From an uncultured Candidatus Peribacteria bacterium (lineage in GTDB: Bacteria > Patescibacteriota > Gracilibacteria > Peribacterales > Peribacteraceae), in NCBI GenBank assembly GCA_964632395.1, contig CAZWES010000004.1:120-64119 (forward strand): 64,000 nucleotides of DNA, written 5' to 3'. Numbering within the stretch: position 1 is the stretch's first letter; each line of letters begins with the position of its first letter. The notes beneath the pieces were generated by a model, which saw nothing but the letters and a program-made list of their open reading frames with translations, was not told the DNA's origin and ran no database searches. This document shows, in pieces, positions 8,444 to 47,132 of the stretch. A program made the position numbers and the translations under genes.

Positions 8444-8543
8444 TGGTGGGGGTAGTGTAGCGCATGGTGGCGCGAGCGGTCTCTCACGAGCCTCCATCCT
8501 GGTTACGGTTACGCGCGGTTCGAATCCCGTCGGCGCCATTTTC

Positions 8544-8615
8544 TCCCCGTAGCTCAATTGGTAGAGCGCCGATCTCCAAGTCGGTGGTTGTCGGTTCGAG
8601 ACCGGCCGGGGAGCT
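8544..8615 (+). tRNA. trnW: tRNA-Trp (anticodon CCA) with an anticodon arm one nucleotide short
   Basis: Acceptor CTCCCCG/CGGGGAG. D arm GCTC-AATTGGTA-GAGC. T arm GTCGG-TTCGAGA-CCGGC. Anticodon region CCGAT-CTCCAA-GTCGG. Close to E. coli tRNA-Trp in layout. No encoded CCA. Confidence 0.75.
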
Positions 8616-43931: not shown

Positions 43932-45614
43932 ATGCAACGCTCCTGTGCAAATTCCTGGTGCAACCAGTCCTTTGAGGTCACCGAGAGCGACATTAAGTTC
44001 TACGACAAAATTTCTCCGGTTTTTGGTGGGAAGAAATATCAGATACCGGCTCCGACGAGATGTCCGGAGTGTAGGCAGCAAAGGCGGTTAACATTCAGAA
44101 ATGAGAATTGCTTATACAATCGTAATTGTGATCTATGCAAAAATCCGATGATGGCTGTGTTCCATCCTAGTAGTCACTATGCAGTTTATTGCGTTGATTG
44201 CTGGTGGTCAGATAAGTGGGATCCTACAGATTATGCACAAGACTATGATCCCAATCGTCCTTTCTTCGATCAGCTTAAAGAACTCACGCTTAAGGTTCCC
44301 AAGGCAGCGGTTCTGCAACTCAATAATGAAAACAGCAAGTACAATACACTGCTTGCTTTCAGCAAAAATACTTACATGAGTCCTGGCAGTTATTTGATGG
44401 AAAACTGCATGTATGTGAGAAAGGGGCAAAGGTGTGGTGATTGTATTAATAGCAATGCACTCAACAAGTGCGAACTGGTCTCTAACAGTACAAATTGTGA
44501 CAGATGTTATTCATCTCACTACTTGGTAAATTGTCGCAATTGCTCTGACTCAAAATATCTTCAAGATTGCACTGAGCTGAAAGATTGTTTTATGTGTTCA
44601 GGAATTAATAAAAAGCAGTATTGCTACAAAAACAAAGAATATCCGAAAAAAGAATACGAACAGATTCTTACTCGCTACGAATCGGAACCCCTGGATGTCG
44701 TGTGGAAAGAGTTCGTTGAGCTTAGTTCCGGTGTTCCAAAGAAAGCACAGATTCAGCTTAACTGTGAGAATTCATCTGGGGACTACCTGTACAATTGCAA
44801 AAATGCGGTCAAATGCTTCGACTGCTTCGATATTGAGGATTCAAAGTACCTATATGAATGCGAAGGTGTAAAGGATTCAATGGATATGTGCATGCATGAT
44901 AAAGAAATTGAGCTTTGTCTGGAACTGAGTTCCGGAGGTGAGAAAAATTATCGAACAAAATACTGCTACTGCACAATCGCATCGCCGAACTCTGCATATT
45001 TGCATTCGTGTTTCTATTTGCGTGACAGTTTTGGATGCGATGGAATACATGAGAGATCAAAGCACTGCATCCTCAACAAACAATATTCAAAAGAAGAATA
45101 CGAAGCCCTTGTCCCGAAAGTAATAGAACATATGCAAAAGACGGGAGAGTGGGGCGAATTCTTCTCTGTAGAACTTTCTCCCTTTGCCTACAACGAAACA
45201 GTTGCTCAGGAATACTTTCCTCTAACAAAAGAAGAAGTCATATCCCGGGGATGGAAATGGAGAGATGAGGTTGACGAAGTTCCACAGGTCGAAAAAATCA
45301 TTCCCGCAGAGCGTCTTCCTGATTCCATCAACGATATTCCCGATGACATCTTAAATTGGGCAATTAAATGTGAAGCAACGGGAAGGCCATTTAGAATCGT
45401 AAAACAAGAACTTGCTTTTTACAGGAAGATGAAGTTGCCGATTCCCCATCTTCATCCGGATGAAAGGCATAAAAGAAGAATGGCACTCAGAAATCCAAGA
45501 AAACTCTGGAACAGAAAATGTGCAAAGTGCCAGAAAGACATCCAGACGACATACTCGCCTGAGAGACCAGAAACGGTTTACTGCGAAGAATGCTATTTGA
45601 AGGAGGTGTACTAA
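43932..45614 (+). CDS. Cysteine-rich protein with N- and C-terminal zinc-ribbon modules and a central Cys-repeat region
   Basis: 560 aa. N-terminal RCPECRQQRRLTFRNE...NCDLCKNPM...VYCVDCW is paralogous to C-terminal ERHKRRMALRNP...KCAKCQKDI...VYCEECY. The centre has many C-x2-C / NC-x-x-C repeats. Confidence 0.6.
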   Translation: MQRSCANSWCNQSFEVTESDIKFYDKISPVFGGKKYQIPAPTRCPECRQQRRLTFRNENCLYNRNCDLCKNPMMAVFHPSSHYAVYCVDCWWSDKWDPTDYAQDYDPNRPFFDQLKELTLKVPKAAVLQLNNENSKYNTLLAFSKNTYMSPGSYLMENCMYVRKGQRCGDCINSNALNKCELVSNSTNCDRCYSSHYLVNCRNCSDSKYLQDCTELKDCFMCSGINKKQYCYKNKEYPKKEYEQILTRYESEPLDVVWKEFVELSSGVPKKAQIQLNCENSSGDYLYNCKNAVKCFDCFDIEDSKYLYECEGVKDSMDMCMHDKEIELCLELSSGGEKNYRTKYCYCTIASPNSAYLHSCFYLRDSFGCDGIHERSKHCILNKQYSKEEYEALVPKVIEHMQKTGEWGEFFSVELSPFAYNETVAQEYFPLTKEEVISRGWKWRDEVDEVPQVEKIIPAERLPDSINDIPDDILNWAIKCEATGRPFRIVKQELAFYRKMKLPIPHLHPDERHKRRMALRNPRKLWNRKCAKCQKDIQTTYSPERPETVYCEECYLKEVY

Positions 45615-45619
45615 CAAAA

Positions 45620-45640
45620 AACCCCGCAAGAGGCGGGGTT
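45620..45640 (-). terminator. Intrinsic-terminator-like hairpin whose U-tract lies on the minus strand
   Basis: AACCCCGC aagag GCGGGGTT is an 8-bp stem. The A6 run at 45616-45621 on the plus strand gives hairpin + TTTTTT when read on the minus strand. Confidence 0.5.
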
Positions 45641-45758
45641 CAAATGCCCATACTAGGGGCGACCCTTTGGATCGTCACCTCAGGGTACTAATAGTTTATT
45701 CTTTCCCTCTGTTCATGTCAAGGCAAATGCGCTAGCTTGTTGTGCGCTGCTATTATGT

Positions 45759-45829
45759 GGGGCGGGCTTGGTGCGGCCTTGGGATCGTCACCTCAGAGGT
45801 TAGGGGTTCGAATCCCCTCCGCTCCACCA
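45759..45829 (+). ncRNA. tRNA-like RNA of tmRNA-TLD / alanine type ending in encoded CCA; not a canonical cloverleaf
   Basis: 7-bp acceptor GGGGCGG/CCGCTCC with G3:U70. T arm AGGGG-TTCGAAT-CCCCT. Discriminator A plus CCA. Only 36 nt lie between the acceptor and the T arm. TGCTATTAT (extended -10-like) lies 3 nt upstream. A second GGGGCGA...GGATCGTCACCTCAG motif at 45656-45683 resembles a tmRNA 5' end. Confidence 0.5.
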
Positions 45830-45860
45830 AGGCAGCGTCAATACTTACCTATCCTCTACT

Positions 45861-47132
45861 ATGACTAAAATCCAATCTCTCCACGCCCGCCAAATACTGG
45901 ATTCCCGTGGCAATCCCACAATCGAAGTTGATTGCCTGCTTGATGACGGCTCGTTCGGTCGTGCCGCAGTTCCTTCCGGTGCTTCCACCGGAACACACGA
46001 AGCGCTTGAACTTCGTGATGGTGATAAAAGTTTGTTTGGCGGCAAGTCCGTTCAGAAAGCGGTCAAAAACGTCAACACCGTCATCGCGGAGAAGTTGAAG
46101 GATATGGATGTTGCGGATCAAAAAGCAGTTGATCAGGCAATGCTGGAACTTGATGGGACGGAGAACAAATCAAAGCTTGGTGCCAATGCCATTCTGGGTG
46201 TTTCGATGGCAGTTTGCCGTGCGCGTGCCGGCAGCGAGCACTGCCCGTTATGGAAGTCGCTCGCAACGCAATTTGAGATCGAAGATCCGAATGTGCTCCC
46301 GGTTCCAATGATGAATGTACTAAACGGCGGTCAGCATGCGGATTCCGGTCTTGCAATTCAGGAGTTCATGATAATTCCGTCAGAATTTTCCACATTTTCC
46401 GATGCGCTGCGTGCGGGAGTAGAGACTTTTCACACGCTTAAGAAAATTCTCAAAGAGGATGGCCACATCACTGCAGTTGGAGATGAGGGGGGATTTGCAC
46501 CGCGACTCAAGACAAATCGAGAAGCTCTGGAAATGCTGATGCGTGCTATCAAGGATGCCGGCTACGGGGGCAAGATCAAACTGGCACTGGATGCGGCAGC
46601 CTCTGAGTTTTATCAGAATGGCAAATACAAAATTGATGGCAAAGAGATTTCGTCAGACGAATTGACTGCGTATTACCAAGAGCTCGTCAACGATTTCCCG
46701 ATTGCTTCAATCGAGGATAGCCACAGCGAAGATGACTGGGATGGGTTCGCCTCACTTACATCAGCAATTGGCGATCGTGTTCAACTTGTAGGAGATGATT
46801 TGTACGTCACAAATGTCAAACGAATCGAACAGGGGATTGAGAAGAAAACTACGAATGCAGTGCTTATCAAGCTAAATCAAATCGGATCAGTCACAGAGAC
46901 TGTGGATGCTATCAAATTGACGCAGGATGCCGGATGGAACCCGGTAATCAGCCACAGGAGCGGCGAGACTGAGGATACCTTCATCGCACATCTTGCGATT
47001 GCGTTGCGTGCCGGGCAGATAAAAACGGGTTCCCTGAGCCGTACAGACCGCGTTTGTAAATACAATCAGATCCTGAGGATAGAGGAGCAGTTGGGCGGGA
47101 AGGCGGAGTATGGTATTGTCTCCTCCCCATGA
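45861..47132 (+). CDS. eno: Enolase
   Basis: [10 protein letters not shown], the [18 protein letters not shown] signature, and [10 protein letters not shown]. Confidence 0.96.

Follow-up and report, generated by a model that had tools for sequence, protein, structure and literature searches.

What does the locus around position 45759 of the window encode? By the window we mean the whole stretch analysed here, 64,000 nucleotides (nt) of an uncultured Candidatus Peribacteria bacterium, that is, contig C4:120-64119 of a 1.07-Mb genome that is 94% complete. At 45759-45829 on the plus strand stands a gene for an RNA with an alanine-type acceptor, a T arm and an ACCA end, and beside it, on the minus strand, a putative gene for a small RNA (sRNA) whose 5′ part is complementary to the middle of the first RNA. 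A sequence-only reading of the locus had offered two answers: a highly reduced or rearranged ssrA, the gene of transfer-messenger RNA (tmRNA), or an RNA consisting of just the tRNA-like domain (TLD) of tmRNA, paired with a neighbouring antisense regulator. We show here that complementarity is private to each such pair and covaries with it, and we have little doubt that the two genes form a genuine RNA module. The anatomy leans towards a role for the sRNA as the dedicated silencer of a tRNA-like RNA that accepts alanine, a view that we hold with somewhat better than even confidence. In what follows, G000 is the window's own genome and G003, G025 and G042 are relatives; C-numbers designate contigs, and L-numbers the loci fetched from relatives.

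Complementarity within and between modules

The sequence-only reading had noticed that the 15-mer GGATCGTCACCTCAG stands at both 45669-45683 and 45782-45796, and that a minus-strand RNA read across the upstream copy would be complementary to the tRNA-like RNA. Both statements hold, and the match is longer than supposed: 45656-45686 is an imperfect copy, about 31 nt long and with one 1-nt indel, of nt 12-43 of the tRNA-like RNA, GGGGCGAC corresponding to GGTGCGGC. The GGGGCG at 45656 had been taken for a second acceptor 5′ end, from which a longer plus-strand RNA might run. The repeat is a real copy, but this segment is part of the 31-nt match and belongs to the minus-strand sRNA gene. Read on that strand, the sRNA is made of the complementary 5′ ~31 nt (45686→45656), a small hairpin GCCC-CUAGUAU-GGGC and the terminator (Table 1). 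The TTGACA-17-TAAACT promoter and the hairpin followed by six T, both pointed out before, are present; in an independent scan of 45550-45900 the same promoter was the sole sigma70-like site, with 10 of 12 consensus matches, and terminators were found on the minus strand only. The last pairs of the terminator stem run into the U run (45621-45616, U6), and the terminator abuts the stop codon (45612-45614) of a convergent open reading frame (ORF) of 560 amino acids (aa). At permissive thresholds, Rfam returned for the sRNA just sub-threshold, terminator-driven matches (anti-hemB with 23.2 of 49.5 bits, and others).

Two further modules of the same architecture were found in G000 by a search with the tmRNA model, with tRNA-like genes of 70-71 nt at C19:17127-17197 and C9:31457-31526. 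Their central loops read AUCGUCAA (C19) and CUUGCUAU (C9), the stems of the paralogues differ in compensatory fashion, and each of the three tRNA-like genes is preceded at 72-115 nt, on the same DNA strand, by an imperfect copy of its central arm. A covariance model made from two copies, then rebuilt from 16, finds members of 69-74 nt. Carriers amount to 6 of the 36 sampled genomes of the same family and to about 13 of the 150 sampled genomes of the class, with one to six copies each, mostly several. The family set comprises 47 tRNA-like members fetched with their flanks, and the structure alignment 49 sequences. The share of cells that pair in this alignment, itself fitted to the model, is 94.5%, and 63.9% after shuffling; double changes are seen at 18 of 23 pairs, and slid controls collapse. 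The G3:U70 pair is kept in 47 of the 49 sequences, and G2:C71 in every one.

For 35 of the 47 members, at least 11 nt of their own central arm recur as an exact copy within ±450 nt, compared to 21 of 2162 non-cognate controls. A clear partner was recognised for 41 members; a mismatch-tolerant search added three weak copies at the usual distance, with scores within the null range. A copy on the same strand as the tRNA-like gene lies upstream (divergent genes) or downstream (convergent) of it; copies on the other strand, on either side of the gene, make the arrangement tandem. Whatever the layout, the transcription signals are on the strand that carries the complement, namely a promoter of the form TTGACx-16/18-TAxxxT, ending 4-9 nt ahead of the complementary block, and a terminator 50-70 nt further on. 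Of 41 sites, 31 have both promoter and terminator on the antisense strand and none has both on the sense strand; among random positions of the same loci the share is 0.6%. The sRNA-promoter geometry of the window recurs at 32 of the 41 partner sites of relatives. Judged by these signals, the transcribed strand is the antisense one.

Predicted pairing follows the same divisions. Duplex energies calculated with the first 30 nt of the sRNA have a median of −37.5 kcal/mol for cognate and −18.6 kcal/mol for non-cognate combinations, and the cognate sRNA pairs best in 29 of 33 cases. When both RNAs have to unfold, the net cofold gain is −13.7 kcal/mol (median) for cognate and −0.45 kcal/mol for non-cognate pairs; the three G000 pairs gain −18.5 (window pair), −19.9 and −13.7 kcal/mol as heterodimers. 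In the predicted dimer of the window the acceptor, D and central helices are lost, and the T arm alone remains. Two loci of G003, on C2 and C92, have flanks that are ~94-98% identical and are either paralogues or strain alleles. An AA to GC difference at the border of the tRNA-like loop is accompanied by TT to GC in the seed of the sRNA and is compensated in the central stem by a change in its 3′ strand; the spacer with the sRNA promoter is 48% diverged between the two loci.

The sRNAs of the window and of C19 have no other match of at least 14 nt in the G000 genome, and the sRNAs showed no preferential pairing when compared with canonical tRNAs. The seed target sequence of the C9 sRNA, CGCGGCTTGCCATC, has a 14-nt perfect match at C7:42053-42066 (+), for a chance expectation of 0.15 per genome. 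Pairing of the sRNA with the acceptor 5′ strand was considered, as RNAduplex reaches nt 1 through the G+C-rich terminator strand; the DNA alignment puts the copy on nt 12-43, and we set this extension aside as unproven. We also considered a two-piece tmRNA in which the sRNA would supply the tag frame, the C4 and C19 sRNAs holding short GCC-started frames that end with UGA. It was rejected because the C9 sRNA, examined by eye, has no stop in any comparable frame. The sRNA stretch UUUGAACCCC (45641-45632, minus strand), immediately ahead of the terminator and extending into it, is complementary to GGGGUUCGAA (45803-45812, plus strand), in the T-stem 5′ strand and T loop. Stretches like UUUGAACCCC, of the form (U/C)GAA..CCCC, occur in sRNAs of the same bacterial family and not in those of other families, and GAACCCCGCC is found only twice in the G000 genome, both times in module sRNAs.

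Anatomy and class of the tRNA-like RNA

Table 1. The two RNA genes of the window and their signals, with arrows where positions follow the minus strand.
Feature	Position	Strand	Remarks
Alanine-type tRNA-like RNA	45759..45829	+	71 nt; from sequence, fold, models and covariation
Acceptor stem, 7 bp, GGGGCGG/CCGCUCC	45759-45765 / 45819-45825	+	with G3:U70
Mini D arm, 2 bp, GC-UUGGU-GC	45766-45774	+	
Central arm	45775-45801	+	9-bp stem, one bulged G, 8-nt loop
Central-arm loop AUCGUCAC, 8 nt	45784..45791	+	U-N-R (U-turn-type) motif, then GUC-A
T arm, canonical, AGGGG-UUCGAAU-CCCCU	45802-45818	+	
A73; encoded CCA	45826; 45827-45829	+	
Antisense sRNA, ~71 nt	45686→45616	−	ends predicted; 5′ ~31 nt complementary to tRNA-like nt 12-43
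sRNA promoter, TTGACA (45721-45716), 17-nt spacer, TAAACT (45698-45693)	45693..45721	−	predicted start near 45686
Intrinsic terminator of the sRNA	45616..45641	−	stem-loop of at most 9 bp (45641-45619), core CCCCGC/GCGGGG
Candidate promoter of the tRNA-like gene, TGTTCA-17-TAGCTT	45710..45738	+	weak match, by eye; inferred
Extended −10-like motif TGCTATTAT	45748..45756	+	ends 2 nt before G1

The elements that had first drawn attention to the gene, namely the 7-base-pair (bp) acceptor with G3:U70, the T arm, the terminal ACCA and a gap of 36 nt between acceptor and T arm, are all there. An unconstrained fold reproduces the arrangement of acceptor, mini-D, central and T arms, with an energy that is not better than that of shuffled sequence (z = −0.55), and our own covariance models, R1 and R2, score the RNA at 96.5 and 81.2 bits. 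The loop of the mini D arm retains the GG that normally docks on the T loop in tRNAs. In the family, the D arm has 2-3 bp and the central stem 8-9 bp, and the acceptor/T branch takes the standard 7/5 form in all members, the 8/4 or 9/3 form of allo-tRNAs being met in none. Constrained folds give a central loop of 8 nt for 20 of 46 members and one of 7 nt for 15. In most members U-N-R occupies loop positions 2-4; a triplet that varies comes next, and then an A that does not. Across members the anticodon-like triplets before this A read GUC, GAC, GAG, GCU, GCG, ACG and GAU, which are non-alanine types among RNAs of alanine identity. The loop pattern fits an anticodon loop (U33, purine 37) as well as a U-turn motif.

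The window RNA has the alanine identity set G1:C72, G2:C71, G3:U70, G4:C69, A73 and CCA, and the elements read by alanyl-tRNA synthetase (AlaRS), G3:U70, A73, G2:C71 and G4:C69, are present in the three G000 copies. Since the full AlaRS set is joined to a CCA end, known identity rules suggest that the 71-nt RNA would be matured like a tRNA and, when free, charged with alanine by AlaRS.

The extended −10-like motif TGCTATTAT, proposed earlier as an upstream signal, is present but too near G1: with a distance of 2 nt, and a start expected about 7 nt after the −10 hexamer by sigma70 geometry, transcription of the full-length RNA probably begins from another promoter. TGTTCA-17-TAGCTT, back to back with the −35 element of the sRNA and 20 nt from G1, is the likelier candidate; the closest homologue, in G025, has TTGTCA-17-TATGCT at the same 20-nt distance. 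Across the module loci the sRNA promoters are near-consensus and the tRNA-like promoters weak. Many tRNA-like genes of the bacterial family carry, ~10-30 nt upstream of G1, a palindrome GGTGTAC-N6-GTAC, often GTGTACGATCGTACAG (L012, L013, L039, L040, L042, L080 and G000:C9:31425), and those that do have no −35 element. Further occurrences in G000, at C5:22474 and C13:4181, are next to the ordinary tRNA-Ala(ggc) gene and, on C13, ahead of what may be an ATG start. It may be a lineage-specific promoter or operator site.

Is this RNA a tmRNA, a tRNA or neither? The presence of a normal ssrA and smpB had been left to a search of the genome, and both were found in G000: a canonical tmRNA of 399 nt, scoring 103 bits, with a tag ORF (AEKFDIK...), is encoded at C1:22830-23228. 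The window RNA is therefore not the genome's ssrA and, with the GGGGCG segment lying inside the minus-strand sRNA gene, a highly reduced or rearranged ssrA is refuted. A full-length ssrA elsewhere is also the first of two findings that, taken together, the sequence-only reading had named as refuting it, the second being an absence of transcripts from 45612-45829. At permissive thresholds the Rfam tmRNA model, RF00023, was the best family for the window copy, with 30.3 bits for a cut-off of 47 bits. The alignment covers the tRNA-like part alone, skips 302 model positions and leaves 9 nt only between the P2-like strands; no mRNA-like domain (resume codon, tag frame, pseudoknots) appears in it, and no tag ORF was found in 45656-45829. 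The G000 paralogues reach 38.9 and 35.3 bits, likewise below the cut-off. The tmRNA model outscores the tRNA model on the window RNA, yet the three ordinary tRNA-Ala genes of G000 (anticodons cgc, tgc and ggc) give similar tmRNA-model scores, in descending order 41.5, 38.9 and 34.3 bits. In its G3:U70 acceptor, T arm and ACCA end the window RNA has the features of the tRNA-like domain of tmRNA, and it follows the plan of TLD-only RNAs, ~65-75 nt long with just an acceptor, a D-like region, a short P2-like stem and a T arm.

As a tRNA, the window copy departs from the canonical cloverleaf by its 2-bp D stem, 9-bp central stem and 8-nt loop. In-register NGC, the alanine anticodon, is absent from its loop AUCGUCAC, and the RNA is not listed by the Rfam tRNA model RF00005 at the 29-bit cut-off. 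ARAGORN, which lists just two other tRNAs within the window, makes no call for the C4 and C19 copies and calls the C9 copy 'tRNA-??? (tgct)'. All three G000 copies have 8-nt loops on 8-9-bp stems, the decoder-type combination of a 7-nt loop with a 5-bp stem being met in none of them. No covariance model turned the window RNA into an ordinary tRNA that had been mis-folded, the other outcome that the sequence-only reading had envisaged, and Rfam 15 has no family for either RNA of the module. Of the proposed TLD-only RNA with an antisense regulator, the architecture is supported by recurrence and covariation in relatives, while the RNA itself is left between a TLD and a tRNA derivative. To a degenerate tRNA or tmRNA remnant next to a chance repeat, or a reduced ssrA, we give a negligible probability: the silence of ARAGORN and of the Rfam tRNA model would suit a remnant, but this reading is contradicted by the canonical ssrA elsewhere in the same genome and by strong covariation with intact identity elements in 47 members from many genera, and the partner statistics and strand asymmetry rule out chance.

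Possible functions of the pair

A silencer could operate as follows. Gene 1 would yield a compact tRNA-shaped RNA with alanine identity, and gene 2 an sRNA of ~71 nt, made from a near-consensus promoter and ended by an intrinsic terminator. In the family folds the exact-match block usually ends no more than a few nt from the 3′ edge of the loop; as it also lies 4-9 nt after the −10, the 5′ end of the sRNA should pair at the loop. First contact would be made there, at the U-turn-type loop of the central arm. Strand invasion would then spread along the 5′ strand of the central stem into the D region, dismantling the L-shape and forming a duplex of 25-30 bp, which RNase III could cleave (G000 encodes AlaRS and, at C5:33793-34179, RNase III). 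It is because the L-shape would be dismantled and the duplex open to RNase III that we read the sRNA as a dedicated silencer; we infer in what order pairing proceeds, that RNase III takes part and which of the two RNAs controls the other.

Several points weigh against this reading or narrow it. Both RNAs are known from sequence alone, the sequencing runs listed for the stretch being DNA throughout (marine and seawater metagenomes, two of them probably the source samples), and both ends of the sRNA are predictions. That the sRNA silences the tRNA-like RNA, rather than the converse, is suggested by anatomy only, and alanylation by the identity elements. Pair counts are somewhat inflated by the fitting of the alignment to the model. 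Three of the 47 members have no partner within ±450 nt and three more a weak one only, so that the tRNA-like RNA can apparently exist alone. Finally, AlaRS requires just an acceptor and T minihelix, so masking of the central arm alone would leave charging possible. Since AlaRS reads the acceptor/T half and the sRNA aims at the central arm, the process under control probably depends on that arm or on an intact fold. It may involve the ribosome, SmpB or an enzyme reading the anticodon loop, or be no more than the stability of the RNA itself.

What the tRNA-like RNA would do at the ribosome is more speculative. A tentative and rather unlikely view is that of an all-RNA conflict or switch module, whereby a tRNA mimic charged with alanine would gain access to the ribosome and there cause mis-decoding or frameshifts, or compete with tmRNA; it would be held inactive by a private antisense RNA of short life and freed when sRNA synthesis stops, for instance upon phage attack or stress. 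Pair specificities would then diversify fast and in step, as between the C2 and C92 loci of G003. Patchy carriage, multiple copies, variable gene order and fast compensatory divergence do seem to resemble accessory or conflict systems more than core translation parts. An RNA-only poison and antidote, possibly serving abortive infection, is unlikely in our judgement: here the free alanylated tRNA-like RNA would mis-decode or frameshift in the ribosome unless masked by the strongly promoted sRNA, and the window loop, U-C-GUC-A, would in this case offer an Asp-type triplet with one extra nucleotide. This would agree with the union, across members, of alanine identity and non-alanine triplets followed by A, with the multi-copy yet patchy carriage described above, with module locations that are not syntenic, with interacting bases that change quickly and in step, and with promoter strengths distributed as is usual in type I toxin-antitoxin pairs. 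A plain decoder, on the other hand, is argued against by loops of 8 nt, and not 7, in 3/3 G000 copies and 20/46 members overall, by the vestigial D arm and by the 8-9-bp central stem; the modules lie among housekeeping genes, outside defence islands, and toxicity is a conjecture at present. It is likewise rather unlikely that a message-less TLD of tmRNA type acts with SmpB, whether for rescue in a minimal form or in competition with the resident tmRNA, its availability being set by the sRNA. SmpB is encoded in G000, tmRNA is the top Rfam family for all three copies (30-39 bits, aligning acceptor, D region, P2-like stem and T arm), and TLD-only RNAs, including that of mycobacteriophage DS6A, have been published (PMC11915505). 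Every tmRNA-model score nevertheless stays below the cut-off and is rivalled by ordinary tRNA-Ala genes; the anticodon-loop-like pattern, which is conserved, would be of no use to a plain TLD, and with a complete ssrA in the genome it is hard to see a rescue role for three copies.

The roles might also be reversed, with the sRNA as an effector on other targets and the tRNA-like RNA as its sponge or decoy, which we consider very unlikely. tRNA-derived sRNA sponges are established, e.g. the 3′ external transcribed spacer of leuZ in E. coli, and the C9 sRNA has its one extra match at C7:42053. This single match has to be set against its chance expectation, and the C4 and C19 sRNAs have none of that length; moreover, the sRNAs show no preference for canonical tRNAs, seeds vary between paralogues and track their own tRNA-like partner only, and the alanine identity set, CCA end and T loop, all conserved, would be superfluous in a sponge. 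A non-ribosomal supply of alanine to an aminoacyl-tRNA-dependent transferase, such as a FemAB-type peptidoglycan bridge enzyme, seems most improbable. Dedicated non-proteinogenic tRNAs for cell-wall synthesis are known in staphylococci, and the only FemAB gene found by Pfam search in G000 (C9:32338-33309) lies 0.8 kb downstream of the C9 module. FemAB is present in 146 of 151 class genomes, whereas the module is patchy, and for enzymes that read the acceptor end there would be little use in a private antisense RNA directed at the central arm. In 11 other carriers FemAB adjoins no module among the matches listed, and its proximity in G000 is for this reason probably a coincidence.

To return to the silencer, the closest likenesses are with type I toxin-antitoxin pairs (hok/sok; the divergent tisB/istR-1 and shoB/ohsC) and with SdsR/RyeA, of the type VIII kind. 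Shared with them are a small, strongly promoted antisense RNA beside its target, complementarity that comes from a short repeated segment and not from gene overlap, several paralogous pairs per genome, each with private specificity, and a U-turn-type (U-N-R) motif in the target loop; in hok/sok and similar systems this motif speeds loop-tail antisense pairing. As in type I systems, the adjacent sRNA has its own promoter and terminator and is complementary to the target RNA. The target differs, being tRNA-shaped, probably alanylated, non-coding and devoid of a toxin reading frame. The complementarity falls on tRNA-like nt 12-43 and not on a ribosome-binding site or start region, no family model or annotation indicates a peptide gene, and the ORFs of at least 40 aa across the tRNA-like gene are two mechanical frames only (45737-45868 and 45742-45864).

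Two groups of RNAs resemble the target. The tmRNA database of 2025 holds nine 'Standard, no CDS' sequences, that is, without coding sequence (CDS), and the same source reports that the TLD-only RNA of DS6A inhibits tmRNA in E. coli, that plastid forms of ~65 bp and jakobid mitochondrial forms are also TLD-only, and that a candidate-phylum bacterial group may lack the tag frame; it makes no mention of an antisense partner of CDS-less tmRNA-like RNAs (PMC11915505). The module RNA is similar in size (~65-75 nt), alanine-type G3:U70 acceptor, ACCA end, canonical T arm and want of an mRNA-like domain, and its best Rfam match is the tRNA-like part of tmRNA. In contrast to the TLD-only RNAs, it coexists with a complete ssrA, in three copies in the case of G000, retains an anticodon-loop-like loop on a long stem, and is mostly paired with a private antisense sRNA (clearly so in 41/47). 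The natural hybrid-identity tRNAs (allo-tRNAs, tRNA-ProX/ProA) likewise join alanine identity to a non-alanine anticodon-like triplet, and a 2026 preprint on the genetic code is said to describe a G3:U70-bearing tRNA-CCG. Allo-tRNAs have 8/4 or 9/3 acceptor branches; the module RNA differs from the hybrids by its 7/5 branch, 2-3-bp D arm, 8-9-bp central stem, 8-nt loop (in G000) and antisense partner.

To our knowledge, tRNAs and tmRNA have no dedicated antisense partners, and in the literature searched, from which subscription journals were mostly out of reach, we met no description of a tRNA-like RNA that has an antisense sRNA of its own. The module is a conserved, co-evolving pair of non-coding RNAs, one of them a small RNA whose target is shaped like a tRNA and probably carries alanine, and its hosts have very small genomes, in which no gene is free from pressure. 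Should the mimic act on the ribosome, this would be a new, RNA-only gating of translation fidelity or ribosome rescue; should it not, it would still be an uncharacterised class of RNA-RNA regulation with programmable specificity. The pair is tractable in vitro, as the acceptor-stem rules of AlaRS are common to bacteria and both RNAs measure ~70 nt.

Genomic setting

The window module sits upstream of the enolase gene. An enolase match was found in 29 family relatives, and in none of these is enolase preceded by the module or by the cysteine-rich gene described below; neither flanking gene of the window module was matched within the 3-kb locus of the closest homologue, in G025. At least five relatives (L101, L106, L110, L123 and L124) have a conserved hairpin, GTCACCCTTCGAC..GCTCAGGGTGAC, within ~90 nt upstream of the enolase start, where the window carries the tRNA-like module.

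On the other side the module is adjoined by the gene of a 560-aa cysteine-rich protein (43932-45614, plus strand), whose sole Pfam hit, a treble-clef zinc finger, is below the cut-off. The family has six copies in G000, five full-length and one partial; besides the window, members are found at C7:13232-16558, C2:20262-21923, C2:68814-69950 and C19:5513-7180. In G042 the 3′ ends of homologous genes (46-52% identity) abut two modules (L043 and L093; G042:C15). A cysteine-rich gene thus stands next to 3 of 47 modules, which we judge to be more than the chance expectation.

Two other tRNA genes were noted on the contig. At 8543-8614 (+) of the window lies a tRNA with canonical acceptor, D and T arms and an anticodon arm that lacks one nt, with ...CUCCAA... 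and a loop of 6 or 8 nt. It reaches 51.5 bits with the Rfam tRNA model and is listed by ARAGORN as 'tRNA-??? (cc)'; two normal tRNA-Trp(cca) genes are found elsewhere in the genome. Just past the window end, at C4:65032-65107, ARAGORN places a tRNA-Ile with anticodon TAT, which is uncommon in bacteria.

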